A DNA stretch of 64,000 bases from Rhizaria sp. SCN 62-66 (lineage: Eukaryota), in assembly GCA_001724265.1 (NCBI GenBank), contig MEDY01000002.1, positions 62,001 through 126,000 on the forward strand, in the 5' to 3' direction. Both the position numbers and the translations under genes were made by a program. The notes beneath the pieces are model-generated. The model had not been told where the DNA came from. It did no database searches and worked only from the letters and a program-made list of their open reading frames with translations. Below are positions 7,882-56,819 of this stretch, piece by piece (the stretch's first letter is position 1; each line of letters begins with the position of its first letter).

Positions 7882-8985
7882 AGGAGTGCGAGGTCGACGA
7901 GTCGACTCTCTGGCCCCGGCAGCAGCGCCGTCGGCGTGGGCTTCGACGCAGCCACTGCAGCCGGCGTCGGCGTCGGTGGCATGACTCTCAGGCCAAACCC
8001 CAACAGCAGCACCAGTCTAAACGGCAATACTGTTAACAACGGCAGACAATCCCCGTATCCGAGCGCCTCAGCCGCCCTGCTGGCCGCCATCCGGACCCCG
8101 AGCCGGTCGAGCAGCAACAACAACCGCGGCGCGAGCGGCATCGGGCTGACTGGCGGCTTGACTTTCGGCGATAGCGGCTTAAATTCCCCCGGCGACCCTT
8201 CGGGCTCACCGGTGCAGACGCGTGCGCTGCTCAACAACACTGCCTCCGCCTCTACTGCTAACAACAACAACAACAACAACGCTGCTAGTTCGAGTTACAA
8301 CAACAGCAGCAACGTTTACGGTGGCATCAGCTCAGGAGCCTCCCCTGCGTTGGCGTTGAGCACGCATATGCGGGCCGTTTCTGACTTGAATAAAGAGTTC
8401 AGGACACTCGCGCTCGCCTGGCGCCGGGCCCCCTCTCAGCCCACCACAAACGCCAACGGCAACAACAACAACAATGCTGGCAACGCCACCCCGCCGGCTC
8501 CCGGGGTGACTGTGGGCACCGCGGGTCCCGATGGTTCGAATGCAAGCCGCCCCTTGACGTCAGTGGCGGCGCAGGCAGCCGCTATTGCGAACACGCTCTT
8601 TGCTGCCCGCTTCAATTCCCAGAACAACAATGCGAACATCGTGACCCTTGTGAACGGTGTGCAAACTACGACGAACAACGGCTTCGGCATCGTCGGCATC
8701 CACCACAACTTCCCCTCCACCGGCGCTGTCGTTGGAAACGCGATCATTCCCCCTACAGCCTTTGCCGCCGCTGCCCGCGCCGCCGCCGCTGCCGCCGCCG
8801 CCACTGCCAGTAACAACAACAACGGCGGGAGTGCCCCCATGGGCGCCGGCATGGGTGCCTCAGGTGTTACCGCGACAAGGAGTGGCAGCACATTCGTAAA
8901 TCGGGCGCCGGCGAGGGCCCACAGGCGCCGCGCAATGCACGCCTTGACGCCCCTCATCGCCAGCCGCATTGCGCAACAACAACAA

Positions 8986-9016
<31 letters not shown>

Positions 9017-15000: not shown

Positions 15001-16479
15001 GCGCAGCACAGCGCCGGCGCGAACGCTGTGGCCACCCACGGCCAGATGAGCATGCAGGGCCGGCACAGCGCCCACGGTCAGGCCGGGCTTGGGCTCAGTC
15101 CCCCCGGCACCGCCGCCGGTCAAATCCCCAATCAGGCCCCCGGCCAGGCCCCCGGCCACCTGCTGACCGTGGTCAAGGCGGGCAGTGCGGGCGGCCACCG
15201 GCCGTCTCAGACCCAGCCCGGCGGCGGCTCGACGGCCGCGAACGCCGCGGGCGGGTCGCCGAGCATGCAGGCGTCGCCGGCGCCGACCGTAGTCAGCGTG
15301 AGCTCCGCCAACAGCAACCCGTCGCGCGGCAACACACCGATGCGGCGCTCCTTCGTCAAGCCCAACGACGGCGCGGCGACGGCGGCGATGGCCATGAACA
15401 TGAACGCTGCCATCGCCGCCGCGGCCGCCGCAGCCGCTGCCGCCACGCTCGGAGGTGTCGCTCCGTCAGGCTTCGCGTTCCCCCCGGCGGGCTTCCCGTC
15501 CGGCCACGGCCAACAGGGTCAGGGCCAACAGCAGCATGGGCATGGGCACGGTGGTAAATCGACTGTGGGCAGTCCCGGCCGTCACGGCCACCACCGCCGC
15601 GCGGGCAGCGTGTCTCCCATCCCAGTCAACCCGTCGTCACTGATGGCGAAGCGCACTCTCGCCGGCCGCCACCTCAACTTTAACACCAACGCGGCCGGCT
15701 CCAACCTGAGTGGGAGCGGAAACACTGTCAGCAGTCTGAGTGGGGCGACGGCCGGCGGCGGCACCCCCGTCGTCGCCCCCGGTGCCAACGGGGGCGGCGT
15801 GATGGCTCTTTCAGTCACGCCCGACTTGCAACGCCCCAACAGTCGCTTCGCATTGCACAACAACCTTGCTAACGCAAACGCGGTGCATAGCCCTGGCATG
15901 ACTGCGAGCAACTACAATAGATCAGTTTCCCCCTCGGCAGCGCTCTTCTGGGGCGCCACCAACCCCAACCCCGCGGGACGGATTGACTACAACACCCCCG
16001 CCGGCCTCAACACGTCCAACTCGCTCGCGCTGAGCAGCGCCGCTCTCGGCTCCAGCAACAGCGGCGGCGTCCCGCCCACCATCATCGGCAGCGGTTTCAC
16101 TAACACCAGCAGCAACACCGTCATCAACGGCAGCAACAGCACAACTGCTGGGATCCGGCCTCTGATGCGGATGCCGTCGCCGGTGCTTGAGGCGCACTAC
16201 CTGACCCAGTCGCAGTCGCACGCGCACGCGCAGGCGCAGCTCCAGGCTGCTAACGGCGCCCCTGGCTCCGGAACTTTTGGCGCTGCCCCGCCCGGTGTCG
16301 AGCGCCTCCCTAGCGCGTTGATGCTGTACCGCGGCTTAGCTTCCGGGTCGCCGTAGCCCCTCGTGGCTGCCAGCGCCCATGGTCAGTCCCACCACGCCCG
16401 AAGCGGCGGCACGCACACGCGCGCTGCGTCCAGCGTCACCTCAGCGATGCTCAGCCAGCTCAGTAGCATCAACAACGGC

Positions 16480-16516
<37 letters not shown>

Positions 16517-31107: not shown

Positions 31108-31148
<41 letters not shown>

Positions 31149-32162
31149 TGGCCTGGACACGAGTCTGCTGGGGCCGCTGCCGCCGCAGTCGTGGCTGCCG
31201 ACGATGCGGGGCCGCCGCGCGTCGCTGGACAGCTCGCTGGTGCTAACGATCGCGCAGCAGCACAGCCTTAGCGGCGCGCACGGCGGCGGCGGGCCATCGA
31301 TCACGCCCAGTCTCGCCGCGATGCACCTGGGCCCCTCGCCGAACAACCAGCAGCAGCACATGCACCACACGATGCTGCAGAGCCAGCAGCTGCTGCAGGG
31401 CCAACAGGGTATGTTCGGCGTCAACGCCACTCCGGCTGCCGCCAGCACGGCGATCGTAACCTCCGGCCTGAACAACAGCACGGTCTCGCCCGGCCTCGGC
31501 AACCCCGGCACTGGCGCTGGCGCTGGCGTTGGCGTCGTGAGTGTGACCGGCGGCGGCGGCGGCTACCAGGGCCGCATGCGCCGCCGCGGTAGCCAAGCAT
31601 TCCTGACCGGCCACCTCCCCCTCAGCACCACCAACGCCAGCGCTCTGGGTGGCGGCGGCATGACGGGTGGCAGTGCCGCCGGTTTGATGGGGACGGCCAG
31701 CGTCCGCTCGTCGTCTGTGCATCCCCTCGCGGCCACTACCAGCGGCGCGCTGGTCGCCACGCCGGCGCCGGCGCAGATGGGCCAGAGCCAGGGGTCCGCT
31801 CACGGCCACGGGTATGGACACGGGCACGGCGGCCGAGGCAGTCAGAACAACACGACGTCCGACGCTGCCAGCGCGGCGAGCCTCGCTGCCGGTACCGTGA
31901 CCCCCAGCATCAACAACGCGGGATACAACCGCATGACCACGACCGGTGGCAACAGTCAGCAGCAGCAGCAGCAGATGCAACAGCAGCAGCAGATGCGGAA
32001 TGCCGGGTTCTTCAACCCGCCGTTGTCGACCCGGAGCACGCTCAGCAACGTCAACAACGTTAACGGCGGCAGCGGCAGCTTCGCCACGGGCCTCAGCGCC
32101 TTCTTCGCGCCCAACGTCAACAACAGCAACAATACCACCGCGGCAGACTCCAATGTGTACGC

Positions 32163-32234
<72 letters not shown>

Positions 32235-38200: not shown

Positions 38201-39531
38201 GGCACTCCCTCAGCCGCGACAACCGCAGCCTCGGCGACGTGAACAACGCCAAGCCCGCCCCGCCACTGCCGCCGCATCTGTCTCGTGGTGCAGGCAGTGC
38301 CGGCCACGGCGGTCAGAATGGAGTCCCGACGACGACGAGAGCTAGAGCCGCCGCCACCGGAACCGCCGCCGGGGCGACTGCGGGCGCAAGCGCGGGCGCG
38401 AACGCTGCTGCTAGCGACAGGCTGAGCCGCGACTTCAAGTCCGGCGCCTTCGTCGTACCTGGCCCGACGGGCCCGAAACAGTCTGGCCTCAGCGTCGGCC
38501 ACGGCGAACTTGTGACTGACAACAGCAGCAGCCACGACAACGACGAGGAGGACAGCGTCGATGACGAGCGACGCAACAGCGACATCGCTGGCGGCGGCGA
38601 CGGCGGTGGCGGCAGCGCCGGTCTGCGCGACCGTCAGCCTGCGGCTAAGGCGGGCAAGTCTAAGGGGCTCTCCGCAATGACCGTGGGCAGCGGAGGCCGC
38701 GCGGCGTCGATGCCCGACGCGGACACGCTCGCCGCTGCCATCAACGCCGCGAACAACGGCTCCGCCAGCAATAACAGCCACAGCAACAGCGGCAACACGC
38801 TGAGCCCGAGCGCTGCTGGCAACGCTGTGCAGAGCCAAGGCATGCGTCACAGCGCCATCCACATCCCGCCCCACAGCTCGCACCCGAACGCCACCACGGT
38901 CGACGGCGGCAGCGATAGCGGGTTTGGATCCGGGTCCGGCGCCAGCACCACGGACGACGAGCACGAGCGCGAGGACAGCAAGGGCGCCGGCCATAGTAAG
39001 GCGGCGGGGAGCAAGGGCGGGAAGAGTGTTGGAACCGCTGGTGCAACTGCTGCCAGCATTGCCGCAGGCAGCACTTCTGCAAACAACACCAAACACTCTC
39101 ACACTGCGCCCTCGACTGCGGCTGCGGCTGCGGCTGGCGCCAGCGCCCAGTCCGGCCCCGGGCTGAGCGGCATCCTGAGCACGGAGCGCTTCAACGCCGA
39201 CTTCGCGTCTGCGCTGCAGCAGGTGCAGCGCGCGGATACCGCGAGTCTGGACCTTCCACTCAGCGCCGACGGCCTCAAGATCAAGACGATCGCGATGCTG
39301 CTGCCGAAGCTGCAGGCCGGCATCCCCGACGGGTTTGTCGCCACATTCAACCACGGCACGCGGCTTTACCTTGCGGGCCGCTGGCGCGCCGCGCGGCGGG
39401 TGCTACAGGACCGCTGCTTAGTCATGATGCCGGGCGACAAGCCTACGCGCGTGCTGCTCGACTATATGGCGCAGTTTGACTACAAGGCGCCCGAGGACTG
39501 GCGTGGCGTCAGGAACCTCACCAAGAAATAA
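5695..39531 (+). CDS. Giant transmembrane ion-channel-like / class III adenylyl cyclase-family protein (Paramecium AC / Plasmodium AC-alpha type), ~11,231 aa; join(5695..23717,23859..39531) with in-frame TAG at 16354-16356; probable pseudo-cyclase
   Basis: ORFs 5617..16356 and 16363..23751 are in the same frame, separated only by TAG. A phase-2 intron 23718..23858 joins them in frame to ORF 23863..39531. Family motifs occur in the expected order: S1-S4 (RLTFFLRQLRLLRLLRVV), S5/S6, QPIVQMTDFVAELARNPL, TAELEATLVQLAGLLQVGFGVAGAKII, DPMLPGRKIWGVFGFGSIRRF...NKNMGNAFLIVWKL, MGFGLHIGWAIEGAIGSRNKIDASYLSSNVNLAARLEGATQQYG...VTVKGS, and C-terminal YLAGRWRAA...DKPTRVLLDYM...APEDWRGVRNLTKK. Start chosen at GCC-ATG-G (5695); the track's 5617 start is a TTG. 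Confidence 0.8.
7108..7310 (+). repeat. Degenerate tandem repeat CCCTTACACGG encoding repeated PLH(G/V) peptides
   Basis: About 10 degenerate copies (cccttacacggc, cccttacacgtg, cctttacacgtc, cccctacacggc, cccttacacggg, ccgttacacggt, cccttacacgga, cccttaaacggc...), nearly all using the otherwise rare TTA Leu codon. Confidence 0.85.
10642..11070 (+). other. Voltage-sensor-like S1-S4 domain of the giant cyclase
   Basis: Hydrophobic helices, S2 motif FTVEFGLR, and S4 with Arg at every third residue (LRQLRLLRLLRVV). Confidence 0.8.
16354..16356 (+). other. In-frame TAG inside the cyclase gene (candidate recoded codon)
   Basis: TCG CCG TAG CCC CTC GTG: frame, GC content and codon style continue unchanged, with no AT-rich spacer or intron. 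S1-S4 lies upstream, S5/S6 and the cyclase downstream. Confidence 0.8.
18190..19095 (+). other. S5/S6 helices, GFG motif and N-terminal half of the class III cyclase domain
   Basis: GVRIGLELGLQTSLRLILAMVILILLLGLLLP; EIVGLLIITTAAIVLGALGG; QVGFGVAG (GFG at 18835-18843); FGFGSIRRF; NKNMGNAFLIVWKL. Confidence 0.85.
20740..20930 (+). repeat. Mixed-charge RD/RE/H repeat (CGTGAC/CGCGAC units), with a related copy at ~24290-24440
   Basis: RDTRDTCDTRDRERDRDREHRHHRDTRDSRDTRDTRDREYRHRER. The second block RSDRDRDRERSDREHHRSDRERDRDRDREH shares the DNA word GTGACCGTGAG and is followed by a KKDKKDKRDKKEKK tract at ~24607-24685. Confidence 0.75.
22738..22830 (+). repeat. Three tandem 30-bp units encoding ASFG(S/A)(S/P)SAGG
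   Basis: GCGAGCTTTGGC(T/G)CC(T/C)CCAGCGCCGGGGGC x3, near-perfect. Confidence 0.9.
23718..23858 (+). other. Spliceosomal intron (141 nt, phase 2) in the cyclase gene
   Basis: GTACGC...AT-rich...GCTAAT branch-like site, polypyrimidine tract, TTCTGCAG. Splicing gives AG|T CGC ATG (S-R-M), in frame with ORF 23863. Confidence 0.9.
29503..29892 (+). other. C-terminal half of the class III cyclase domain
   Basis: AHEALAAF...MGFGLHIGWAIEGAIGSRNKIDASYLSSNVNLAARLEGATQQYGVHVLMS...LDCVTVKGSTVPLDLYTFDL. Confidence 0.9.
32164..32244 (+). repeat. (CAG)20 perfect microsatellite within a Q27 tract
   Basis: 20 uninterrupted CAG at 32164-32223, followed by CAA CAG CAG CAA CAG CAG CAG. Confidence 0.95.
39301..39531 (+). 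other. C-terminal TPR-like tail typical of this cyclase family
   Basis: LQAGIPDGFVATFNHGTRLYLAGRWRAARRVL...PGDKPTRVLLDYMAQFDYKAPEDWRGVRNLTKK-stop. Confidence 0.75.
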
Positions 39532-40106: not shown

Positions 40107-43100
40107 ATGCCCCTGCAGGAGCGGCGTCCCACGGCGCTGTCTGTGGCCGGCCCCGGCTCTGCGCTGGGCAGCCCTGGTGACGGCTCTCAGTCGCATCACC
40201 ACCGCAGCCTCAACGTGCAGGAAGCGGGCATCTTTCTCGAAGTAGATAACGACGTTGCCGACTACAACGCACAATCCGAGTACGTTCTTTATGTCTCTAT
40301 GTCTTTGCATTGCTTGCACTCGTTAACCTTTTGTCTATATTGCAATGCACTCGTCCGCAATCTCGTGTCCTCTTCCTTGCCCCCTTTCGCTCACTACCTC
40401 TCTCCCTATGTTCTCGCATGACGTGTTTCCTCTGCACACCAACAGCACATGTGAGGACCGCGCCAACGCCTTTGTGCGCCACCCGGTGTACAATATCCTG
40501 CTTATCCTGTTGATTTTCTTTGACACCATCTTCATCATGCTGCGCCACTTTGAAGTCGTCAACCGGACCAAGTTCGAGCTTGTCTCTTTCGTCCTCTGTG
40601 TCTGTTTCCTCGCTGAGGATCTCTTCCGCGTTCTCCTCCTCCGCCGAGCTTTCTTTACCGTGTTTAACGTGCTCGATTTTATGCTCGTCACCGTCTGCTT
40701 CGGACTGTATATTGACCAAATCTTCACGCGCACCATCAAGTTCAACAGCGCTATCCTGTTCCTCACCTTCGCTTTGCAAGTATGCCGCCTTTTCGTCCGC
40801 TTTATCGCCCAGCTGGCGTACATCTCCGCCTCTGCGCGCAGCATTGTCGGGCAAAACAAGCAGCGCTACCGCAAGAACGGCTTCGACCTGGACCTCGCCT
40901 ACATCACCAAGGGGCTCATCGCGATGGGCCTTCCCAGCACCGCCATCGAGGGCGCTTATCGCAACCCCATCGCCGAGGTCGCGCGCTTCTTTAACACCAT
41001 GCACGCGGACCACTACTTGATCATCAACCTCTGCGCTGAGCGCACCTACGACGCGCGCCCCTTCCACGGCCGCGTGGCACGGTTCATGTTCGACGACCAC
41101 AACCCGCCGCTGTTCCCCACAGCGCTGCACTTCGTGGCGCGGCTCGCGGCCTTCACGGCGCTGGATCCCGCCGCCGTGGTCGCGCTGCACTGCAAGGGTG
41201 GCAAGGGCCGCACCGGCACCATGGCGTGCATCTGGCTGCTCGCACTCTTCCCCGCGCTCTACTCGGAGCAGGTCATGCGGCTCTTTGCCGACCGCCGCAC
41301 CGACGGGGAGAAGCGCGGCAAGCTCCAGGGCGTGGCCGGGCCGTCTCAGATTCGGTATATTGAGTACTTTGAGCAGTATCGCAACAAGTGCCTCGCTTTA
41401 ATCGCGCTGAATAGTAACAACAGCATCAACGCGGCGACCGCTAACTTGAGTAGTCCCGGCTCAAATGCTGGCTCTGGCTCCATGATTGCGAGCGCGACGG
41501 CCCATGCTGCTGTTGACCCGAGCAATGCCCTTGCAGTCTCTGGGAGTAACCAGACTCCTGCCCGTGACAACCTGAGTGTGATCAGTCCGTCTCACGCCAG
41601 TGCCAGCGGTATTGACTACAGCAATAACATCAATAGCAGAAGCACTGCTCCTGTTGTCAGTAGCACGCATGTCAATCCCTCAAGCGATTCCACAACAGGC
41701 GGCAAGCTTGGGACCGACAGCAACGCGAACGCACAGTCGACTGGAACTACGGCCGCTTCAGCAGCAGCGGCGGCTGCGGGTATTGCGGCGTCGCCGACGG
41801 CCGCCTCAGCCCACAGCTCCGCGTTAGTCGCGGCCAGCTGCGCGCCCGCCGGCCCCGCCGCCCGCAGCAACAGCAGTGCCCTCAGCGTCGGCTGGGACAT
41901 CTTAGACTCCGCCCCGCCAGTCGAGCTGCTAACTCTCTCGGTGCACAACGCATTCAGCTACGTCGACAGCAAGGGCAAGCGGCAGCGCGGGTGGCCGGAG
42001 CACGAGTCGTTTGCCGTTTATATCACCTACTACCCGCACGGCCGCGAGCAAGGCCGCGAGTGGCATCACCCGCAGAAGGAGGCCCGGGCGCGTGCGGCCC
42101 GCGCGAAGCGCATGCGCAAGATCGCCAAAATGCAACAAAAGCTGCTGGCGTCGCATGCGGCGGCCGTGGCAGCGGCTGAGGAGGCAGCACGGGTCGCCGC
42201 TGAGGCCGAGGCGGCGGCAGTGGCGGCAGCGGAGGCTGCCGCGGAGGCGGAGGCCGCTGCGGTGGCCGAGGCTGAGGCTGCAGGGTTGATGTATAATGTG
42301 ACCGGTAGCACGAACAATATGAACAATGTGAGTGTCAATGGTGGTGACGCGTTGCAGTTTTCAGACCAGTTTGATGAGCAGCAGCAGCTTTTGTGGCAGT
42401 GGCAGTGGCAGCGGCAGCAGCTTGCGGCTGCGGGCGGCGGCGTCGAGGGTGACGGTGGGCTATCGTCACAACAGCAGCAGCAACTGCAGCAGCTAGGTGA
42501 CTGTGAGCAGGTCAGATGGGAGGAATTCCATCTGGCCCCCTTAGACATGAGTATGTACAACATGACTGGTGAAGGGCTCACTGCTGAGCAACAACAGCTG
42601 CAACAACAGCAGCAGATGCAGCAGCAGTACATGTGGCTTCAGCAAATGCACCAGCACTACAATCAACAGCCACAACTGACGCATCAGCAGCAGGATCTAG
42701 AGCAAACTCTAGCTCATGTCGACAACAGCGAGCAGCTGCAGCAGAAGCAAGATGACTGTGAACAGGGCACAATGGATACCAACAATGTTGAGTTGGAGCG
42801 CCTCGGCAGCAAGCTAACGTGGCTCAACATTAAGTCTTCTCCCCATAACGACAACGGGGACGATGATACAGCTGCAACGAGCAACACTCTGACGAATACG
42901 AACAATGATGAGACTCAAGAACAGAGCCCTAACAGCAACACTGACGACGAGGAGCACGCTAGCGCTGGCCGCAGCAACAACAGCAATGATGACGACGACA
43001 ACTTCGCCACGATCAACACCAGCGGTCATATTGGTGAGGGCAGCCTCGACAACGGCAGCAATAGCATCGGGGACGGCGCGATTTGCGGTGTGTCAGTCAA

Positions 43101-46100
43101 GTTCAACACCCGCATTCGTGCGCATCACTCGATCTCGCACAAGCGGACGGGGGATCAAAGTCAAGCCGCCTCGCCGTGTCATAGCCCGATCGCGTCCCCG
43201 ACTCAAATCCACGCCGTTATTACGGATCCCAAGTCTGCCAACAACAACAACACTCTCAACAGCGAGTTGATCGACGACGAAGTTAAAGCGAGCACGGATA
43301 ACCTCTCCGGTGGCAACATCGGTCTGTGTCACTCGGCGACAATGCCCAACGATGCGACTCTCACCAGCTCTAACGTGGGGATGCTGACCCGCTCTCACAG
43401 CCACTTCCCGGCGCAACAGGGAGGACAGGGGGCGCCGATGCCCAGCCTCTACTACACGGGGGGCTATCCAGCGTCGGGCAACGCGCCCCCGCACGGCACC
43501 GGCAGTGCTTCGCTGCGCCCCCATAGCTCGCAGTCGCAGTTCAGGCCCCTGTCGGCTCTCTCGCTGACTGCACAGCAGCAGCAACAGCCGCTGCCCCAGT
43601 CACATCAACAGCAGGCGCAGTTGCAGCAGCAGCAATTACAGCTGCAGCTGTCTCACCATTCTCGCAACTCGTCTCGTGCTTCATGGCACCAGCAGCCCCA
43701 GCAGCGGTTCAGCCACCCTCACTCGACCACCTCAACCGGCACCTCGTTCCCCTCCACACCAGGCGCGATCGCCGCTGGCACAGCAGCAGCAGGAGCAGGC
43801 GCAGGCGCATCGGGCACTAGTGTTAACGGCTCATTCGTCTTTCCGGGAGGCTTAACTTCCGGCCTCGTCCCCGCCTCTGCCCACAGTCACCTCTACAGCA
43901 ACGGCTCTCGCCCCGGCTCCGCTGCGGCAACGCCGCTCTACGCTGGTTCCCGGCGCCTTTCACGCTATGGCTCGACTGCAAGCTCCACGGCGACTGCTGC
44001 TGCCGCGGCGGCCGCGGCAGCGGCAGTGGCGGCGGCCGCAGCGGCGACCGCGGCTGTGGCGAGGGAGGCTGCGGACGCGGCGGCGGCGGTGGCGGCGGAG
44101 GGCGGCGGCGCTGGTTTTATCGACCTGCAAAGCAGCAGCAGCAGCAGCAGCAGCAGTAGCAGCGAAGACGGCTCGGATAGAGACAGTGATAGAGACAGCG
44201 GCCATGACGACGGGGTTGCTAGGACTACCAACTCAGCCGCAAGCAGGAGCAAGGGCAAGAGTGTTAACAACAACAGCTTGTCTAAGAATAACAAGCAGAA
44301 TGTTACAAGCGCTCGCAACAACTTTAATCGCAACAGCAACAGCAACACCACAGTGAGCAATGCTATGAATAACAGCGACGCTGGTGTTGTATGCGTCGAT
44401 AACATGAGCCAAACGGTGCATAATGGGGACCTCCACACGATCGTCGACAACAGCGACGACAACGCTGAAGACGGTGACGAAGACAACAACAACAACGACA
44501 ACGACAACGGCGATGATAACGATGACGATGACGAATACGGTGACTACTACAACGACGACGGCTTTGACGCCAACAATCACAACAACACTGCCAACCAGCA
44601 TCTGTTCAGTCGGCCCACTGACATCGACAATAGCAAGCCGTCTTTGTTCGGTCCCGGCCATCTCAACCTCAACCTGGGCAACATTCACTGCGACAACAAC
44701 AATAATAGGAGCAAGGGCAAGAATGGCAGCCTCACCACGAGCAATCAGTCCCAGCTGCAGCAGCAACAGCTCGCTCGGTGCGAATCAGTCGGCTCCAACA
44801 CGGGCTCACACGGCAGCTTAGGTAAGCCGCCACGTGTTACCCCGCGTGCGCCGCAGTCCGCACGCGCACAGTCGCGGTCACTTGCTCCGCCCGCGAAGGG
44901 CTCGCTCACGCGGCAAAAGAGCACCGAAGACGTCCACTTAACGCCGACTGCAGCGGCAAACTCCCTCGGGTTTTTCTCAGCCCACTCGGGCTCTGGTTCT
45001 GGCTCCGGCGGCGCTGTCACTGGCTCCAACTCCAACTCCAACTCTGGCGCGGGCGCGGGCTCCGGCTCTGGCGCTGGCACTGTAACCGGTTCAGGCTCTC
45101 CAAAGAGCGTTGGGCCAGGCAGTCCAAACGTGGAGCACCGCGGGTCACTTGCGCAGCAGCAGGAGAGACAGAGACTGCGACAGCGACCGCGCCAGCTCAA
45201 ACATCAGCAGTCGTTGGGCAGCATCGTCACCGCCAGCAACCGGAGCAGCCTGGTCGGGGGCTTTGGCGGCAGTGGCACCACGCTGACTGCCGCCGTCGCC
45301 GCTGCGCTCGCTGGGGCCAAGTCCCGCACTGCAACACACACCAAAGCAACAGCGAAAGCCACACTGGTACCTGCGAGTGCGAGTGCCCAGCTAAACTCTA
45401 GCTTTGCCCACGCAGGCTCCGGCGTGACTTCCGGAGACTCGGCGACGATTGGAGACACACATGATTCCCTGACGCAACAACAGCAACAGCACCCGCAGCA
45501 GCATAGGCCGCCCTCCCGCGGTGGAATGGGGCTGTCGATGAGTGTGATCCCGCCCAATCGGTCGCTTTCCCGTAATCACACGGGTTCGTACCAGCAGCAA
45601 CAGTTTTATCTGCAGCATGCGCCTCAGTACGTGGCTCTCAGCAACAGCGGCGCTTTCCCAGTTCCTGCGATGTATACTGTGCCGGGACAACACCATCAGC
45701 AGTCGTGTCCTCTGTTCAGTCCCGCCCCGGCCTCGGCGACTCCGCTGCAGCAGTCGCGGAAGTCGGACCCGGCCGATGGCAGCCCTGGCGCTAACAATGA
45801 CGCTGCGACAGAGACTGCTGGTGATGAAGCTTCTGCTGAAAGCAAGTCTAACAACGCTCATGCCAGCGCTAACAGTGGTAGCAGTGTTGCTGCTCGTGTT
45901 ACTGCCATGGGAACAGTCATCGATGCGATCACTTCCGTGGACATCCCTGTCAGTGCTGCTGACAACGCTCAGAATATAAGCGCCTCACCCGGTATAAGCG
46001 CCCTGGGCGACAGCCCCCAGTTCTTCCCCACTGCGAACAATACGCCCAGTGTCTTGCCGCGCCACCTACCCGAAGAACACACGTTAAGCACCCCTGTAAC

Positions 46101-47631
46101 CGAGATGAGGACCGTGGCCGCCACCTGCGCCGCAACAGAGGGGCTCAACACGAGTGGCATTGCAGCTGCTAAGCATCCTGTGTGCACATGCTCAGTGCGC
46201 GGTTTCTCCCCGCATCACCAAGGCCCTTACACCGGTAACCCGCAAGGTACTTACGCAGGCGGCGCTGTCCCCGGCAGCGGTCGCTTTGGCCACGCCGGCT
46301 CCGGTCTTGTTCCCCCTTACATCTCGATGAGCTCGCGGCCGACGACCCCCCTACATTCCGCCCGTCTCCAGCTGCAGTCGAGTCTGCACCATCCCAGTGC
46401 AGTGGGCGCCGGCGGCGGCAGCGCGTCCGCTCAGATGCAGTCGTCGCGACTGCATCCCAGCATCCTCGCTGCGCACACCCGCCAGAGCTACAGCCACAAC
46501 GCTAGCTGGGGCAACGGCAACAGCAACTTAGTCTCTGGTGCGTCGTTTGCGCACTCTAGCACTGCATGCGTGAACAACAGTACTGCTGATGCGCCAGTGC
46601 ACGGCTCGAATGACTTTGATAACAGCTCCGCCGCCGCCACCGCAACTGCCGGCACTGCTAACACTGGGTTTTCCTCGGCATCGAACTTCAACAACACCAA
46701 CAACAGTTCTTTCTACGGCTATGGCAACACCAGTCTCAACAACGCGAATACTGGTGGGCACGCGTACGGCCCCAACACTAGCTTTGCGAGCCAAAACTTC
46801 CGCAACAGCGGCGCCAGCGCTTCAGCCGCAGCCGCCGCGGCCGCAGTCAGTTCCGCTGCCCTGGACGCCAAGCGCATGCGGACACTGGCGATCCTGGAGC
46901 GGGCCTCGCGCCGCGCCGCCGCTGCCGCCTCCGCTGGCACCAACACGCACGCGAGCGCTAACAGTGAAGCTGACGCTCCTCGTGGCAGCGTGGCGAGCAT
47001 GGGCTCTGCGACGGGCGCTTCAGGTATGCGTTTGCGGCAAGCAAGGGTTTCTCAGCTCACCAAAACGCCCAGCGTCGGTCCGTCGACTACGACTGCTCAC
47101 GGTCACGCCCACGGTCACTCTGCTAGAGAGAGCCCTGGGTCTGCGGCCCACAGTCGATTGCCGCGAGCCCACAGTCACTTCGGCTCCGTGATCGAAGAGA
47201 ACTCTGATCTCACGACGAGCAGCAGCAACGCGAGCGGCAACAACAGCGGCAACAGCGGCGCCGGCGCCAGCAGCGGCGCGACGATGACGACGTCAGCTAG
47301 AGGCCCTTTGACTGGCGGCAAGCCGGGTCTCGTGCGGGGCGTTACTCTGAACAGGCCCGGGAGCGTGATCGCCGGCGGCCGCACTCTCAGCGAACATGTA
47401 CCCGTCGCCGATGAAGCTGCCGTCACGAACGCAGATCAGCGCACTGAGAATGGCGAGACCCGGCTCACCGTCACTGAAGACCCCGATAACAACGACACGG
47501 TCAGCGGTGAGGGCGACGCTGCGGCGACACTGGACAACAACATGACGTTTGTGGGCGACACCGCCCGCGATTGCACCAGCGACGTGAATGCTGCGTACAC
47601 CAACGCCGACACTGAAGCTGACGGTGCCTCC

Positions 47632-47663
<32 letters not shown>

Positions 47664-50600
47664 GGACACTGCCAACCGCAAGAAAGCGCGCCGCCGTCGC
47701 TGGTTTCCGTTCCTCAAACGCCGCAGCAGCAGCGCGGACGCAGCGGGCGCTGTTGACGCGTCCGCTGCTGCTGCTGCTGTCGGCGGTGGCGCGGCTGTGG
47801 CCGGCAGTGGCGCCGCCGCGGCAGTGTCGGGGCCTGTTCCGTCGTCGGACGTCAGCGGCTATACGTACCAGACGTTCCGTGTGCAAGCGCGCAAAGAAAA
47901 GCCCTCCGCGCTTTACGCACCGCTCTTCACTCCGCAGCAACAACAACAGCAACAGCAGCAAGTAACGCAATCGCATGCGCAGGGACAGGCTCAGAAATCA
48001 CTGGCCCAGAGCCAAAGCGATGCCTCAGCAACTGCTACTACTGCTGCTGCTGCTGCCGGCACTGACTCAGCCGTTGATAATACCACGCCCGGTGGCAGCG
48101 ACCCCAAGGACAGCGTTGGCGACAGCGGCGATGGCGACGGTGGCATTGCTCTGGGCGAGTTCCCCCTTGACGCCGACGGTCAATTCAACACTTCCGACGT
48201 GTTTTTCCTCCTCAAGTCATTCAAGCGCGACCAGCGGCGGCGCCTGTTGCTGCGCGGCGACATCAAAATCGAGATCATTCGCCACGGACTTGCGTCGAAA
48301 CAGGTTATGTGCTGGTTCTGGCTTAACACCGCGTTCATGTAGCCCAAGCTCGAGTTCACGGAGGCGTATAACGAGTTGGAGCGGGTGCAGCGTGTGTCGG
48401 ACGCGGCCGCAAAGGCCAAGGCCGAGGCCGATGCCGAGGCTGAGGCGCGAATGACGGCGGCGATCGCGGCCGCGGAGGCCGAGGCGGAGGAAAAGGCTCA
48501 GGCGCAAGCGGCGGAGGCTGAGACTGCGGCCGACGCGAATGCTGATGGCGTGAGTGTCAGTGTTGCGGGCAACAATGTAAGTAGGACTGCTGGCGGCGAT
48601 GTAAGTAGTCCCTTGTTGGACCCCATTTCGTATGCGTACATCACGAACAACAACAGTCTCACCACGAATGGTTGCTCAAGCCCAAGCAGTGCGAATGTCA
48701 GCGCGAATGTAAGTAGCTCGCGGCTTGCATTAGATCTCGCCGCAGCAGAGCCCGACACTGATACGGTTGGCAATGCAACGCGTAATTCACAATCGCTCGC
48801 TGCGACAACGATGCCCCCCAGAACTGCGACAGCTGTGGCGGCAACGGGCGCATCGATGGCGGACAGCGTCAAGGGTGCGGATAATGTTAGTGTTGCTAGA
48901 GCTGATGTCACAGCAACAACGACTGTTAGCGGCCAGAATACTGACAGTCCCAACAGCAGCGATAACAAGGCTCTTGTTGTCACTGAACCAACAACGAGCA
49001 CGGCTGTTCAGACTCTCGCGAGCAATCCTAATGCCAGCGTTGCGCTTGAGAAGTCGAGTAATCCTTTCAGTAACCCCCTGAGTGATCTCGGTCCTATCTT
49101 GCCCCGCTCAGCTATTCTAGCGCATGCGCTGCCAAACATTCTCCGCGCCCCAGCCATCACCAACAACAATAACGTCAACAAGAACTCGACATTCAGCACC
49201 GGTTCCTCTGTTGCTGTTGCGAGTGCTGCTCCGACCGCTAACAGCAACAGTCTCGCTGTTGCGCCAGCAGCAGCAACAGCTGCGAGTGTCAGGCTACGGT
49301 CGCCGCCATCTTCGGCTATGCCCGCATCAGTGTCAACGTCAACGGCCTTAGCGCCACCACGCGCACGGTCTGTCTCCCAGTCGCAGCCGCAGGCCCCGTC
49401 ACTGTTGCTGCGCAACGCAGCCCCCGGCGCACCCTACGCTCTCGGTTCCTCCCTTCTCTCAGTGCCGGTGCGGCTTAACTTGCGCAAGGCTCAGATCGAT
49501 GACGTGGACAAGGCAGCCAAAGTGTCGGAGGACTTTGTTATTACGCTGACGTACAGGCACGTATGGCACGGTGAACCTATCGGCGCGCGCAATCCCGCGT
49601 ACATCAACGCCAGCGGTAGCAACAACGCCAGCATCAACAGTAGCGCGGACAATAACCGAGAGAATCCGGCCGCGGTGCCTCTGGTGACTGAGACTGACGC
49701 TGCGGCTGATCCCGTGAACAGGAGCAGTACTGCTGTTGCCTTGCGTAATAACAGTGTTGTGACACGCAACACTGCCAGCCCTAGCGTTGCTGACGTCGCG
49801 CTTATTGGTAGCCTCCGTGCAACCTCGCCTGTTGCGGCTGCTGGTGTAAGTGGGGACGTCGATTTAAGTGCCTCCGCACCCGTTCTAAGTATCTTGGAGA
49901 CTGTGGTCGCCGGCGGCTGGGTGCTGGGATTGGATGCGGCAGATCTAAGGGGTCGCGATGGTGTAAGTGGCGTCGATCTCCTCCCGTGGCCGGACGCGAA
50001 ACGCGAAAACGAAGCCGTATCTCTCGCCAAAGAGCTTGTTGTGTCCACTGCGACGACGGTGGATGGGCTGCTACACAGTGGGTTGATTCAGATGTATCCG
50101 CAGCAGCAGCAACAGCCTTCGCAGCAACAGCTGATGTACGCAGCCTCTCCTCGTCCTAGCTGTGCTAATCTCAACAACTTCTCTACATCTGACAAGACTG
50201 CTATTTATAACGCCAACACTCCTGCTTTTGCGGACGCTTACAACGGGGGCAACGCTGATAACAGCTTCACAAATGCTGTTGAGATGACCGTGCTTGGCAA
50301 GAGCTCAAGCGACGCCCACGTCAGCATCGTCAACGTTAGCAGCTCGCGCGACCTCAATCTAAGTACCGCGCCCCTTAGTCCCCTCGTGGCATCGCACTCG
50401 CAGACGCTGCTGACCCCGCTCGTGTCGAGCCAAAGCGGCGTTGCGCACACCGACACGTCGACGATCGCGGTCGCCGCGTCACCCGATCTCGCCGCAGTCG
50501 CGGAAGCTACTCCTGAGACTACGTTGGTAGCAGACGGTGCTGGGGGTGGGGAGACGGGCATTGAAGCTCAGACTGTGCATGAAGCTGGGACTGTCGCTGA

Positions 50601-53600
50601 CTCTAAAAACAACAATGACGCTGCACCTACGGTTGAAAACGTTGAGAAGGCTCAGAAGAACGATCACACTGACAGCTGCAGTGACGGTGGTGATTTGTAC
50701 GACGTCGAGACTGTGCTAGACAGCTCTAGCGAAGACGAAAAAAGTCAGGCTGCGGCTTACAATAACAAGCCGCGTGGCTCTGGTTCAGGGGCTCGTCTCA
50801 ACACGAACGCTCACGGTCAGAATGCCCGCCGCGGCCACTCGCGGTCCAACAGCAGCACGAGTCAGGAGAAGCTGCTGCAGTTGACCAGTTTAGCGATGAT
50901 GTCACCGTCTGGATCAGCAGCACCAATGCCCACATTCTTTGTGTCGCCGTCGCACAGCTACAGCAGCCATCAGGCGCAGCAGCAGCAGAGGCCTGGGCAG
51001 CAGCAGCAGCCGGGCTTGCCGAAGCAGTCAAGCGTTGTCTCGGTCGGCTCAGTCTCTGGCTTCCGTGACAGCGTCAACCTCAGCAGCAGCAACAGCAACA
51101 GTGGTGAGAATAACGTGAACGCTAGCAGTAACAACAAGTACGGCATCTCCGCGACGCTGCTCGCTAACGCCACCGCCGCCGCGGCCGCTGCAGCCTTCAA
51201 GGGCTCGGCCTCCGGCGGCGGCGGGACCCGGGGCAGTGTGAAGCAAGGCGGCAGTCGCCGGTCAATCGCCAACGGCAACGGCAGCGGCAGCAACGGCTAC
51301 GGTTACGGCCCTAACCAGGCCAGGGGCAGCATCGCTGCGAGCAGTGTGTTCCCAAGCAACGCCAGTGACGAGGCGCTCTATGTTGACTACGAGGCGGATG
51401 AAACGTCCTCCGTTGCGCCCACAGTCAAACCCGGCGGCCATATTGCCACCAGCAACAGCGCCGGCACTATCTCTGCTGGTGGCAACAGCGCGAACGCGCC
51501 CTCTGGCGTGGACAATGCGTTCCAACAGCAGTACCGCCTGCACTATGGAAGCGGTGCTAATAATTCTGATGTTGGCAACACCGTCCGAGGTGGGTTAAGC
51601 GCTGGAGAGAGTCCGTACACTGTGCGCCGCCGCGGCGACGACGTGAATACCTCTAACAGCACCGAGAATCGCGGCAACATCAGCAATGCCACCGCTGCTG
51701 CCATGATCGCGGCTGCAGCGGGAGCGAAGGTAAGCCGCCAGGGGTCGACTCACAGTCACTCTCACCACGCCAAGGGTAGCACGCACAACAGTTCTAACTA
51801 CGCAGGCGACTCGAATAGCTCTGTGTTTAGCGCCAGCGGTGTTGACAGCAGTCTCAGCAACAGTAGCGAGCGCCACAACAACAACAGCAACGCCGCCAAC
51901 ACTAGCGCGAATGCGGTGAACGTGAGTAAGAGCAAGAGCAACAGCAGCAATAGCAGCAACAACAGTATTATCAACGCTGAAACAGGTGCTGTTGTGCTGG
52001 TGCCCGCTGTGACGCGGCCGTCAGTCAGCGGCATTGTTGCTATGCTGCCTGCATCTGCGTACAACAGCAATCATGCCGTGAAGTTTCACAACACGAGCAA
52101 CACCAGTGACGCGTCAAGCATTAGCGACCACAATAGCCACGACATCAACAGCAGCGGCAGCAACGCGTTTGTCGCCCAGCATCTGCTGCGCAACGGCAAC
52201 AAGACCAACGCCCGCGCTAGCGTCGTCGTCATCCGCGGCGGAAAGCCCCATGACCGAGCGCGCGACCGTGGGCATGAGCAGGAGCCTGACTACGAGGACG
52301 TGGAAGCGGATGACCTGGAAGAGGTGTACACCGAGCAGCATCCATGCGGCGTGCACTTCAACCGCTCACAATCGCTGAAGACGGAGGCGATCCCGACTGG
52401 CACCTATACCAGCAGCAGCAGCGGCGGCGGCAATAACGCTCACAGGAACGCCGCTGACTCTCCGGCTGGCGCCAGTGCGACGGCAAGTGCGTCTGCTACT
52501 GGTGGTGCTGCGACTCGTTTCGGACTTGCTCCTGTGGTCATTCCGAGCAATTCTAACACGAGCACGAACTCCAACTCCAACAGCAGCGCGAATACCAACA
52601 GCTCCGCCACCAGCTCGACCGGTACTGATGGTACTCCTGGCACGACAACAGGTTCTGATAACGCTACCCCCGCATTCGCCGCTGCAACTGGTGGAAACGA
52701 CCATGTCGGTGCGATCAGCGTCGGCTGGGTGGGCGTCAGTCCCGGCGGCGCCGAGGCCGTGTTCTCTGTCTCCGACGTTATGCCGAAGCGCCACCTTGCG
52801 TCCAGCAGCAGCGGGGGCAACAACAACGCTGCGATCGCCAACTTGAACGCGCCTCTCGCGAAAGACGGCGTTTCCGGCGGCGTTGGCATCCCCAGTATCG
52901 CGAAGATGGGCAATGTAAGTGGGCTAGGCTCGTCTCAGTACCCGCGCCCTTACAGCCCGCAGCCGTCCCCTTCGCCGCCGCCAGCTGTCGCCAGCGATAT
53001 GCTGCCGGGAAGCACGTACAATTCCATCAAAGCCAACGCCGCCTCCAATAGCAATATCAATGTCAGAGCTGGCGTTGCAACGAAGGTCACTCTGCAAGCT
53101 CCAACCCCCATCATCCCGCAGCAGCACCAGCAGCCGTCTTCTGAAGCCAACCCCGATCAGCCGCCGCCGGAGCTGCAACAGCTGCAGCTCCAGTTGCAAC
53201 AGCAGCAGCACATGCAACAGCTACAGCAGAGCTTAGAGCCCGGGCAAGCCCAGCTTGTGCCCAATATCAGCGCTGTCGGCAGCCAGCACGATAGCGGCGC
53301 TTTTGTGAGAGACAATAATGACGGGGTGGCGGGAACTAAGGGACTTAGTACCATGAGTCTAAGTGGTGACGTGCTTTATCAAAGCGACTTAGAGCACTCA
53401 CAGTTACAGCTACAGCTGCAACAGTTATCACAACAGCGATCCGCCGTGCTTGCTCTCGCGCAACCGCAGCCACAGTCGCAAGTGAATGAGAACAACAGCA
53501 ACATGTTGCACAACATTAACGCCGTCCCGACCTCGTCTTCGCCCCACGACGCCGCCTTCAACGCCAGCGCCGACAGCGGCTTCAGCGTCGCCGACATCAG

Positions 53601-53799
53601 CGGCGGCGACAACCACAACGCCGCTGACGTCATCAATGTGAGCCACATCCCCCGCGGGAGTGTCTGCGCCAGCGAGGCCCTTACATTCGATCTCCCGCGC
53701 GCGCCTAGCCTGGCCCTAACATACTCGCTGCCGTTGTCGGGCGCAACGCCGGTGCAGAGGTCACAGGAAGACGGCGAGCAACAGCGAAAGCAAGAGTAA
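40107..53799 (+). CDS. TPTE: Voltage-sensing phosphoinositide phosphatase (VSP/TPTE-like: 4-TM sensor + PTEN-type phosphatase + fragmented C2), ~4,508 aa; join(40107..40279,40446..53799) with in-frame TAG at 48340-48342
   Basis: Four TM helices, linker ARSIVGQNKQRYRKNGFDLDLAYIT, IAMGLPS...EGAYRNPI, NLCAERTYD, FDDHNPP, active site HCKGGKGRTG (from 41188), QGVAGPSQIRY. C2 strands: PVELLTLSVH (~41915), LRGDIKIEI...MCWFWLNTAFM (~48250-48339) and RLNLRKAQIDDVDK...EDFVITLTY (49471-49555). ORFs 40345..48342 and 48376..53799 share one frame. Confidence 0.82.
40280..40445 (+). other. Spliceosomal intron (166 nt, phase 2) in the VSP gene
   Basis: GTACGT...pyrimidine-rich...CAACAG. GA|C gives Asp and joins the ATG-40107 exon in frame to T-C-E-D-R-A-N-A-F-V-R-H-P. 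Confidence 0.8.
48340..48342 (+). other. In-frame TAG inside the C2 domain of the VSP gene (candidate recoded codon)
   Basis: GCG TTC ATG TAG CCC AAG CTC: directly follows the conserved FWLNTAFM strand. The last C2 strands are encoded ~1.1 kb downstream in the same frame. Confidence 0.85.
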
Positions 53800-54271: not shown

Positions 54272-54649
54272 TCACTGCGGCGTTGTCGTCTCATTCGCGG
54301 CGAACAACAGCGCGCGCAATGCGCTGTTTCTACCGCCGTTGGCGGTAGTGGTAGTGCTGGCGGCCGCCCGGAGCACCAGCATGGCAGGCTCGCCCTCCTT
54401 GACTGTGTACTCCCCTTCAGCTACCAGGTGGCCCACCACCGTCCGGAGCTCCGGCTCCTCCACCACGGTGTCGTACCGCGCGCGCAGCTCGGCCCCCGCG
54501 GCGGCGACGACGGCGGCCGTCGCGACGGCGTTGTCGCCCTACAGGTTGAGCTTGTTGAAGGCGTCAGTGAGCGAGGAACGGATGCGGGCGGCGCGGATGC
54601 GCGCCAGAGGGTCGTCGGTCACCCACCCGTCGATGTACGTAGGGTCCAT
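54272..54649 (-). CDS. Small hypothetical protein (~125 aa from ATG 54649; upstream exons possible) with in-frame TAG at 54541-54539
   Basis: GC-rich island with strong C/G-ending codon bias on the minus strand: MDPTYIDGWVTDDPLARIRAARIRSSLTDAFNKLNL*GDNAVATAAVVAAAGAELRARYDTVVEEPELRTVVGHLVAEGEYTVKEGEPAMLVLR...TTTPQ-TGA. ORFs 54539..54727 and 54272..54466 share a frame. A TTCCGCAG acceptor-like site ends at 54651. Confidence 0.55.
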
Positions 54650-55085
54650 TCTGCGGAATGCGGAACAATAAAGTACATTTAGAAAGTATAATAAGGCAAA
54701 ATTGTGTGTTATCAAATCAACCATCATATATTAGTGCCGTGTTTCCAATGACGGTCTTCCCATGTCACTACATATCCTCAAAGTTAGCTCGCCAATCCAC
54801 TCAGTCACCTGGTCAGAGTCGGAGTTGTTGCTGTCGCATATTGGTAAGACTGAAACAACAAGCAAATAGCACAGAGATCAAACTACACACAGTCACTTAT
54901 CTTTCATTATGTATTACAACTCCACGCACTCTGGGCGAGAACAGAAAAGCTCTCTGCACACAGACGCGCGTCTATATCTTTTATCATTTGGTCTTCACCA
55001 CTGTCGTTAGTTCTCCTCAACAAGTAAACCAACAACAGAAACTCAACCCATCATCAACTCAACCCACAACAGCAACACGAATTAT

Positions 55086-56819
55086 TTACTTCTTCTTGTT
55101 GCCCGCGCCGCCGGCGGTGTGGCGGAAGAAAGCGATGTCGCCATCCTTAACCTCGTACTCCTTGCCGCGCTGCATGAGCTTGCCGGCCTTCTTGACCTCG
55201 GCCTCGGAGCCGTACTTGATAAGGTCGTCGTAGGCGAACATGTCGGCGTTGACGAAGCAGCGCTGGAAGTCGGTGTGGATCACGCCAGCCGCGCCGGGCG
55301 CGAGGGTGCCGTTCTTGATGGTCCACGCGCGCACCTCGACCTTGCCGCAGGTGAAGTAGTGGATCAGCCCGAGCGCCTTGTAGCCCGTAACGGAGATGCG
55401 CGGCACCATCGTCTGCGACTCGCAGGCGGCCTGCTCCTCGGGGGTCATTCCCACCCAGCGCTGCTCGAAGGTGATGGAGAAGGGGATCAGCGTGGAACCC
55501 GGGGAACGCTTCTGGACCCACTCGTGCACGTCGGGCAGGAACTTGTTCGACTTGTTCACGAAGTCCTTGTCGGAGATGTTGCACAGGTACACGATCGGCC
55601 TAAAAAATAATAATTAAAAAGAAATACATATGAAGAGAAAGCCAAAGAAAAAAAATTGTTAGAAACTTTAAGAGGATACAAATCGAAAGAGACCAAGCAG
55701 CCTAGAATTAAAACACAAAATATAAATAAAAAAACCCACTGTTATATCGTGGTTCCGTTCTTTAATTAAATAAAACATCTGTCTGTAGCCCCTAAGTTAC
55801 GATTATATACGTACTTGGCGGTGAGGAGCTGGAGCTCGTTGAGGGTCTCGACGTCGTCGTTGGTCCAATCACCCTCACGGATGTCGACGTTGTTCTCGAG
55901 GTAATCCAGCGCCTTCTTCATCGTCTCGTACTGGCGCTGCGTCTCCTTGGTCTTGTTGACGCCGCGTGTGATGATCTTATGCAGGTCATCGTGCTTGCGC
56001 TTGACGAGGGAGAGGTCCTTCTGGATGAGCTCGGTGGAGATGATGTCCAGGTCGCGCACGGGGTCAACGGACGACTCAACGTGCTCAACCTCCTTGTCCT
56101 TGAACGCGCGGCACACGTGGAAGATGGCGTCGACGGCGCTGATGTGCGACAGGAAGGCGTTGCCGAGGCCCTTGCCCTCGGACGCGCCCTTGACGAGACC
56201 GGCGATGTCGTGGATCGTCAGCACAGCGGGGATCTCCTTCTCGGGCTTGTAGATCTTGACGAGCTGGTCCATGCGCTCATCGGGCACGGGGATCTTGGCG
56301 AAGGCAGGGTCGATCGTGCAGAAAGGGTAGTTAGCCGCCGGGACGTTGTGCTTCGAGAGCAGGTTGAACAGCGAGGACTTGCCAATCTGTATACATGTGC
56401 ATGAAACCAAACAAAAACACGTGGAATAGATAGAATGTGAGCTGGATGTTTGTTGAGTTAAACTATACTAAACCTAAGTAAGATCTGAGCGATAAATAGT
56501 TGAGAGATGGAGACGTACGTTGGGCATGCCGACGATACCGATGGAGACTGGAGTGGGGGACACAAACAGCGCAATAAAGCACACAAAAAGATCACATCGT
56601 GAGCCATAGAGTAAATATAAGGTGGGAAAATAAAAGAATGTAATACAGAGGGTGTCCTGTTCAAGAAGAAATGGGGGATTTGGCGCGGGAAAGAGGAGCC
56701 GGAGTCAGCAATGTGGGATTCTTCGGAGTCGCAAGCCAAGAGAAAAGAAAGTGATACGTACCATCGTTACCAGGACGGCCAAGGTAAGCCTTCTTGACGG
56801 GGGCGTTCTTCTTGGACAT
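55086..56819 (-). CDS. OLA1: Obg-like ATPase 1 (YchF family), 390 aa; exons 56819-56762, 56547-56519, 56386-55815, 55599-55086
   Basis: Spliced product MSKKNAPVKKAYLGRPGNDVSIGIVGMPNIGKSSLFN...NYPFCTIDP...DIAGLVKGASEGKGLGNAFLSHI...LLTAKPIVYLCN...YFTCGKVEVRAWTI...APGAAGVIHTDF...GKEYEVKDGDI. Exons total 1173 nt with frame preserved at every junction. Confidence 0.95.
55600..55814 (-). other. OLA1 intron 3 (215 nt, phase 2)
   Basis: GTACGTAT...TTTTTAG; AA|G gives the Lys of LLTAKP. Confidence 0.92.
56387..56518 (-). other. OLA1 intron 2 (132 nt, phase 0)
   Basis: GTACGTCT...ATACAG; splits the P-loop GMPN|IGKS. Confidence 0.92.
56548..56761 (-). other. OLA1 intron 1 (214 nt, phase 1)
   Basis: GTACGTAT...CTCCAG; G|TC gives Val. 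Confidence 0.88.

Follow-up and report, generated by a model that had tools for sequence, protein, structure and literature searches.

The stretch of DNA analysed here, referred to as the window, comprises 64,000 nucleotides (G000:C2:62001-126000). It is part of a 34.9-Mb assembly from an uncultured, single-celled eukaryote whose introns are of the GT-AG type, and it contains a gene related to TPTE and the voltage-sensing phosphatases (VSP) that is interrupted by an in-frame TAG at 48340. We conclude with high confidence that UAG is reassigned to sense throughout this genome. As judged from sequence, its meaning is likely glutamate, and the remaining stops are UAA and UGA; read in this way, the VSP-like gene would encode one protein of 4,484 residues. 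The observations behind these conclusions are the stop-codon usage in sampled sequence, in-frame TAGs within conserved domains, including one in the release factor eRF1, and a gene for a Glu-type tRNA with a CUA anticodon. Gene ends at TAA or TGA, together with in-frame TAGs in intact genes and one Glu-type CUA tRNA, make UAG = Glu likely; the choice of residue follows from the tRNA evidence and the conserved columns taken together.

The open frame of the VSP-like gene extends from 40327 to 53799 with the TAG as its sole interruption, and 1,818 further open codons follow up to the TAA. As in TPTE, TPTE2 and the voltage-sensing phosphatases, a probable membrane domain is followed by a PTEN-like phosphatase and then by a C2 domain, and the active-site loop is the same. 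In contrast to these proteins it is about 8 times longer, its C2 domain is split by low-complexity inserts, and it carries a tail of 1,400 residues. Alignments with TPTE2-like homologues extend over up to 97-100% of 40444-41370. A Pfam search of the hydrophobic N-terminal region gives no match; the alignment with homologues predicts a probable voltage-sensor-like domain there. The C2 domain (window 41920-49554) is broken by inserts of about 1,940, 100 and 376 residues, such that its strands are spread over approximately 2,550 residues, and about 1,940 codons separate the probable first two from the remaining domain downstream.

Directly upstream of the TAG, the gene encodes LRGDIKIEII (48250-48279) and VMCWFWLNTAFM (48304-48339). 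This half matches positions 63-98 of the 133 positions of the Pfam PTEN_C2 profile with 29.6 bits (cut-off 27.1); the match ends at position 98, hence the final third of the model is absent upstream of the TAG. Downstream, and in the same frame as the upstream half, the peptide RLNLRKAQIDD...DFVITLTY is located at 49471-49554. Profiles of the last two C2 strands were cut from homologues and searched against 1.72 million residues of six-frame translation. The profile of the 9 closest homologues ranks this peptide first with E 0.004 (runner-up E 8.5). A broader profile, built on 99 segments that represent 97 of 120 homologues, likewise ranks it first with E 0.07 (runner-up E 2.4). BLASTP with the homologue P0137 places a separate piece at 49471-49554 (41% identity, E 1e-4), and in five homologues, too, the C2 domain is interrupted by an insert at this position, though a shorter one. 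A profile of the whole C2 tail was unusable, as low-complexity sequence swamped the matches, and whole-protein alignment was dropped for placing the C2 domain, which it misplaced.

These matches indicate that TAG 48340 is very probably translated and that the C2 domain straddles it, as an earlier note on this DNA had proposed. The note gave the downstream peptide in the correct frame and place, with an end at 49555 that is one base too long. It had also suggested a check against Pfam PTEN_C2, which finds the upstream half up to the TAG and misses the downstream peptide, for which alone there is no Pfam match at E 0.001. The note further regarded this site as the best internal evidence for translation of the codon, and here we differ: among 64 motif matches the column at the TAG consists of E (14), R (11), T (9), Q (8) and others (22). 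Given this variability, the site speaks for translation of the codon and cannot name the residue, and stronger evidence comes from eRF1, the CUA tRNA and stop-codon usage. The guess of E or Q as the encoded residue agrees with the result.

Genome-wide stop-codon usage was assessed by a Markov frame model on 918 kb of fetched sequence, which corresponds to approximately 3% of the genome and was partly chosen for holding a TAG. A stop candidate was said to continue if it was followed by at least 40 coding codons in the same frame. By this criterion 22 of 40 TAG candidates continue, as compared to not a single one of the 84 TAA and 52 TGA candidates. The remaining 18 TAGs were inspected by eye: 7 are located just within introns, 3 are sense codons, 7 are wrong-frame or antisense artefacts, and 1 is unresolved. 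In a stricter run, TAA continues in 0 of 54, TGA in 0 of 30 and TAG in 14 of 19 instances. In about 0.9 Mb, no gene was seen to end clearly at TAG, the one ambiguous case (L012) having a TAG two codons ahead of a TAA. All six long genes of the window terminate at TAA and hold 2 in-frame TAGs within their 18,862 codons, several kinase genes terminate at TGA, and overall TGA accounts for about one third of gene ends with TAA as the main stop. TAA and TGA both serve as stops, not as sense codons.

As a sense codon, TAG is rare. In 384 kb not selected for TAG, 12 sense TAGs were counted within about 88,400 codons (approximately 1 in 7,400, or about 0.5% of Glu codons); the filter behind this count misses 48340 itself. 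Within Pfam domains, 11 exonic TAG sites remain after intron acceptors are dropped. For example, Helicase_C has 3 flagged among 88 matches, one of them exonic, and UCH has two exonic sites. No exonic TAG was found in Kinesin (1/54 flagged), DEAD (1/43) and SNF2 (1/25), where the flagged codons are intron acceptors, nor in ABC (0/20), DHC_N2 (0/13), myosin (0/6), cyclase (0/10) and AAA (0/22 sole-TAG matches). In the dynein cores, too, no exonic TAG was found, with 9 aligned TAGs being off-frame or at intron borders as judged by eye; the genome encodes about eleven dynein heavy chains. A small gene of the window (54275-54730) and five further TAG neighbourhoods contain no Pfam domain.

One of the in-frame TAGs is located in the N domain of eRF1. 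A single eRF1 gene was found (among 3 candidates, the other two being pelota); it terminates at TAA, and its TAG corresponds to approximately human position 107, based on the offset. In 117 homologues, with three fused proteins left out, this column consists of E (106), D (10) and V (1). If translation ended at this codon, the cell would presumably be without a release factor. The same sequence, the eRF1 TAG included, recurs in 1,626 of 1,626 bases in a metagenome contig (L183) that was assembled separately, from a possibly independent sample. Near the codon-reading motifs, eRF1 differs by T32S (Thr in 117 of 117 homologues), G57S and T58K in human numbering, and it retains E55, Y125 and N129. 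T58K is also present in its closest relative, P0004 (84% identity), as is M34V, and P0004 keeps Thr32. According to PMC3632111, T32S has hardly any effect in human eRF1, leaving its activity largely unaffected, and positions 55, 125 and 129 are specific for UAG, while PMC5304391 ties T32G in Iotanema to lost UAG reading. Given the retained residues and the mild T32S, the eRF1 described here may still read UAG in part.

The candidate decoding counterpart is a single-copy gene for a tRNA with CUA anticodon. A tRNA pattern search returned 10 hits, among them 1 CUA tRNA, 1 Lys tRNA and no UUA tRNA; Rfam scored 63 of 506 tRNA candidates, and the tRNA set of the genome is incomplete. The CUA tRNA attains 58 bits with Rfam, its cloverleaf is fully paired and a run of T follows the gene. 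It is flanked by GC-rich coding regions, and the same contig carries kinase and kinesin genes. Compared to the tRNAs of its own genome, identity is highest with Glu(CTC) (47/73) and Glu(TTC) (47/75), followed by Asp (39/73) and Gln (33/73 and 29/74); the first five acceptor pairs and the entire T stem are common to the CUA tRNA and tRNA-Glu(CTC). All 8 listed matches in E. coli are annotated as tRNA-Glu. The exact 20-base D-arm occurs in at least 120 bacterial loci, with 119 of 120 among the matches listed being tRNA-Glu and 1 uncalled. The best bacterial locus among these matches (55/73) is closer than the genome's own Glu tRNAs, such that the CUA tRNA may stem from the host, an organelle or a bacterium. 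We note that the molecule combines a D-arm identical over 20 bases to that of bacterial tRNA-Glu with an acceptor stem similar to that of the host tRNA-Glu. A scan for similar CUA tRNAs in viruses returned none. Genes resembling a cytosolic glutamyl-tRNA synthetase, a mitochondrial glutamyl-tRNA synthetase and a glutaminyl-tRNA synthetase are all present, as assigned by eye.

With respect to the encoded residue, Pfam bits were summed by hand over the 11 exonic sites for 7 of the 20 residues, Asp not among them, resulting in E 605.5, Q 601.7, K 600.9, S 595.8, Y 587.6, L 584.8 and W 580.3. On these profile scores, Leu, Trp, Tyr and Ser are excluded as the meaning of UAG. Individual columns were also considered. 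The kinase hinge column at a TAG consists of E (19), D (3) and Q (0) in 25 paralogues. In the E2 enzymes of the Ubc6/UBE2J type, 131 of 150 homologues matched, and the column contains D (87), E (13), N (12), S (11) and Q (1). In SUV3, the column is D in the human structure and S in the other structure shown. The orthologue and paralogue columns (eRF1, Ubc6/J, kinase hinge and SUV3) are more telling than the Pfam sums.

Several observations weigh against glutamate, or against a completed reassignment. Glu tops Gln by merely 3.8 bits, 2.4 of which come from one site, the kinase hinge; here, four of the five closest kinases with solved structures shown carry S and one carries E. RAF-type kinases have Q at this position. 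The column of the eRF1 TAG can vary, as P0004 has Val and another eRF1 (L188) Gln. At least 3 Gln within 5 residues are found at a fraction of 0.20 of TAGs (30 uncurated sites), close to that of CAG (0.23) and not of GAG (0.02), and a Gln-rich neighbourhood also occurs at 3 of the 12 TAGs of the unbiased set. In addition, the CAG of the parent ubiquitin genes is replaced by TAG in a ubiquitin-like domain. None of the changes in eRF1 is identified as abolishing UAG reading, and stop usage was sampled in only about 3% of the genome.

The neighbourhoods and the small Pfam margin, together with the ubiquitin codon, are what would be expected if UAG encoded glutamine genome-wide, as in Iotanema, Hartmannula and Trochilia. 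The CUA tRNA would then be charged by glutaminyl-tRNA synthetase, for which a candidate gene exists, or UAG would be read by a near-cognate tRNA-Gln(CUG). We consider this improbable: the body of the CUA tRNA is of the Glu type and not of the Gln type, and the columns of eRF1, Ubc6/J and the kinase hinge are acidic and almost without Gln. The Gln-rich surroundings may reflect that TAG arises mostly from CAG, through C-to-T mutation in tracts free of constraint, which would yield such surroundings whatever UAG means; UAG = Gln predicts the same pattern. The preference for Glu over Gln is provisional.

A reading of similarly low probability holds that UAG is ambiguous, being translated mostly as Glu with substantial Gln and premature termination, in a code that is in transition. 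The rarity of TAG (12 in about 88,400 codons, none exonic in the dynein cores), the single copy of the CUA tRNA gene and the UAG-reading residues kept by eRF1 all fit such a state. The base following the TAG is C at 7 of 12 sites, a count that is confounded by Gln-rich tracts; C after a stop codon is a context of weak termination. The presence of TAG in eRF1, the kinase hinge and an E2 enzyme implies that decoding is adequate for important proteins, and the dearth of TAG gene ends also speaks against ambiguity. This alternative overlaps with glutamate decoding as preferred here, and the difference is mainly one of degree.

Explanations that retain the standard code and treat TAG 48340 as a local matter, namely as part of a splice donor, as a codon restored to Trp by adenosine-to-inosine (A-to-I) editing, as a programmed read-through site, as a pseudogene lesion or as an assembly error, are very unlikely. 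Splicing deserves some attention, since the TAG overlaps a GT, 33 in-frame AG acceptors precede 49471, and TAGs within family matches are often intron acceptors (4 of 9 sole-TAG matches to Pkinase, and 5 of 7 candidates examined later). The earlier note had argued against splicing by ruling out an acceptor at this codon and had overlooked a donor (AT|GTAG). A donor role appears unlikely: the insert is coding-like (59% GC, 19% T, open), as compared to 35-40% T in two eRF1 introns, and GTAGCC at 48340 is dissimilar to donors seen in the genome. Editing is not supported, because Trp has the lowest Pfam sum of the seven residues, 25 bits under Glu. As for read-through, RNA folding downstream is ordinary at the three TAG sites tested (z -1.2, 0.6 and -0.5), and the flanks differ among TAG sites without a common context for read-through or for recoding of the selenocysteine (SECIS) or pyrrolysine (PYLIS) insertion type. 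The 7-mer GTAGCCC is common to two of the three TAGs in the window; it was rejected as a recoding signal because it is missing at other TAG sites. The sparse read contigs listed leave 48340 uncovered and show no splice joint or base change there, which decides nothing either way; this base is thus without read confirmation, again a point against our conclusion. Errors, however, would hit TAA and TGA too, both of which are spared, and the TAG of eRF1 is confirmed by the metagenome contig. A local cause also leaves the CUA tRNA and the dearth of TAG gene ends unexplained, and as a genome-wide account the standard code is already largely refuted. Pyrrolysine or another standard residue (Leu, Ser, Tyr or Lys) has a negligible probability: ARAGORN labels the CUA tRNA 'Pyl', Lys is within 5 bits of Glu, and a sainouroid rhizarian reads UAG as Leu (PMC5304391), but the label presumably reflects the anticodon alone, the tRNA body is of the Glu type, no long-arm CUA tRNA is found among 14 hits judged from the matched strings, and Leu, Tyr and Ser are 10-21 bits under Glu.

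The proposed decoding of UAG as Glu would operate as follows. The CUA tRNA would be expressed and would receive Glu from the usual glutamyl-tRNA synthetase, and it would read UAG and not UAA, according to the pairing argument in PMC5304391. It would outcompete the partly changed eRF1 at UAG, though imperfectly, and decoding of UAG would be less efficient than that of GAG and GAA. Such weaker decoding would explain the rarity of TAG among Glu codons and its absence from the dynein cores. Selection would have cleared TAG from gene ends and would hold it rare within coding sequences.

A further, doubtful possibility, proposed by analogy, is that a rhizarian flagellate is mid-way to UAG = Glu and that the UAG in the N domain of its own eRF1 acts as a negative-feedback switch. 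Excess eRF1 would shorten its own synthesis and thereby set the balance between termination and a single suppressor tRNA. The chance expectation of a TAG in a gene of the size of eRF1 is approximately 6%, and the evidence for feedback is therefore only suggestive. Bacterial RF2 is autoregulated by a frameshift, to which the switch would be comparable. Plant eRF1 is autoregulated by read-through and nonsense-mediated decay at the normal stop and the 3' untranslated region, as described in PMC5397192. In both systems, as here, translation of the release-factor mRNA could depend on release-factor activity; in contrast to plant eRF1, the hypothetical switch would have an in-frame UAG of the N domain, and not the normal stop, as its site of action.

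Table 1. Features discussed in the text. Coordinates refer to the window unless another locus is given.
Feature	Coordinates	Strand	Remarks
TPTE/VSP-like gene, 4,484 codons with TAG read through, TAA end	40345..53799	+	start Met 40345 or 40408, uncertain
Hydrophobic N-terminal region, probable voltage-sensor-like domain	40444..40899	+	inferred from homologues
PTEN-like phosphatase domain	40900..41400	+	HCKGGKGRTG loop at 41188-41217
First two C2 strands, probable	41920..42033	+	by-eye comparison with homologues P0135 and P0137
Middle C2 strands, last being the FWLNTAFM strand	47860..48339	+	Pfam PTEN_C2 for 48241-48342; earlier strands by eye
In-frame TAG, inferred sense codon (likely Glu)	48340..48342	+	
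Low-complexity insert within C2 domain, 376 codons	48343..49470	+	no in-frame stop, 59% GC, 19% T
Last two C2 strands	49471..49554	+	profile search, BLASTP
True terminator TAA	53797..53799	+	
Second in-frame TAG	16354..16356	+	within 6,000-codon gene 5695-23751
Third in-frame TAG	54539..54541	-	small gene of unassigned function, about 54275-54650
eRF1 gene, N-domain TAG	G000:C63 about 103370-103700 (L031)	-	in-frame, exonic
tRNA, CUA anticodon, tRNA-Glu body	G000:C84:76008-76080 (L038:1489-1561)	-	single-copy
Ubiquitin-like domain fused in 629-codon frame	L089:1501-1716 (G000:C681)		

The organism is probably a rhizarian, as weakly suggested by protein similarities. Among the named hits looked up, 3 of 5 for HSP90 are rhizarian (Mataza, Leptophrys and Lapot, the others being Euplotes and Ploeotia), as are both for VSP, whose closest named homologues among those looked up belong to Paulinella. 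Identities are low (65-69% for HSP90, 41-46% for VSP), and none of the 3 named eRF1 hits is rhizarian. No polyubiquitin junction was found in the ubiquitin genes, and a placement came neither from 18S or the literature on primers (PMC6133090, PMC5030685) nor from the ubiquitin junctions. The ubiquitin genes (L087-L091) are divergent monomers that start with MSMQ, have a short tail past GG and in some cases internal deletions. The 18S rRNA gene is very divergent and contains four Rfam matches to group I introns (L044:1501-5945, G000:C706); an open reading frame within this region (L044:2107-2637) matches a His-Me homing endonuclease family (E 3e-14). Matching sequencing runs come from activated sludge and wastewater, in small shares that do not confirm the habitat, and a metagenome scan for relatives found none close except the identical contig L183.

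Many genes of this genome are giant, intron-poor and padded with tracts of Asn, Gln, Ala and Ser. In the window, two adjacent giant genes at 5695-23751 (about 6,000 codons) and 23863-39531 (about 5,200 codons) have the appearance of a membrane domain combined with an adenylate cyclase; a weak Pfam cyclase match (E 0.007) is found in the latter only, and the former was judged by eye. An intron-containing GTPase gene on the minus strand (about 55090-56700) has a MMR_HSR1 match, is YchF/OLA1-like by eye and is located between the VSP-like gene and a gene with a TLC domain.

UAA and UAG nearly always change meaning jointly, and the few exceptions serve for studying how release factors and tRNAs can tell them apart. 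If true, UAG = Glu with UAA and UGA as stops would be a new entry among genetic codes, and if the rhizarian placement holds, it would be a second independent code change in Rhizaria, with a residue unlike that of exLh. Given the rarity of TAG and the modest changes in eRF1, codon capture may be at an early or a stalled stage in this organism, and the question of codon capture versus an ambiguous intermediate becomes testable in such an organism. Under standard annotation, several hundred genes of this genome, eRF1 among them, would come out truncated or split, and rare-codon codes of this sort may escape automated screens.

The published codes were compared through sources identified by their PubMed Central (PMC) numbers. 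For changes of UAG only, PMC11687900 gives Leu, Gln and Ser as known residues, with Glu for UAG only where UAA is changed too; examples are phyllopharyngean ciliates (Leu or Gln) and Scotinosphaera (Ser), to which PMC5304391 adds the rhizarian exLh (Leu) and Iotanema spirale (Gln). The text seen of PMC9161772 holds no additional case of UAG = Glu. In the literature examined, mostly outside subscription journals and without supplements, where code tables may matter, no UAG = Glu with UAA as stop was found. The code described here is likely a nuclear code without a report in this literature.

Among systems that read UAG as Glu, Oligohymenophorea sp. PL0344 (UAA = Lys, UAG = Glu; PMC10553269) also has a CUA tRNA that is most similar to tRNA-Glu. 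It differs in having lost UAA as a stop as well, with UGA alone kept, and in having 10 CUA tRNA genes, whereas here UAA is the main stop and one CUA tRNA was found, in an organism that is probably no ciliate. Codes with both UAA and UAG (UAR) as Glu are described for peritrich ciliates and Blastocrithidia in PMC11687900 and PMC12153298. These systems likewise read UAG by a tRNA-Glu(CUA), and Blastocrithidia spares its highly expressed genes the reassigned codons. They reassign UAA as well, with a UUA tRNA in Blastocrithidia, whose genomes lost GC, in contrast to the GC-rich genome studied here, which keeps UAA and UGA as stops and has no UUA tRNA among 10 pattern hits. With the UAG-only codes (exLh, Iotanema and others) the genome shares UAG as sense and UAA as stop, and differs from them in that the residue is probably Glu and UGA is a common stop. 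In addition, TAG occurs about once in 7,400 codons here, as opposed to its widespread use in UAG-only codes according to PMC11687900. The Thr32 of eRF1 that is changed to Gly in Iotanema (T32G) is also changed here, as the milder T32S. A CUA tRNA was predicted in PMC5304391, whose cases are known from transcriptomes only, and in the present genome the gene for such a suppressor tRNA is identified.

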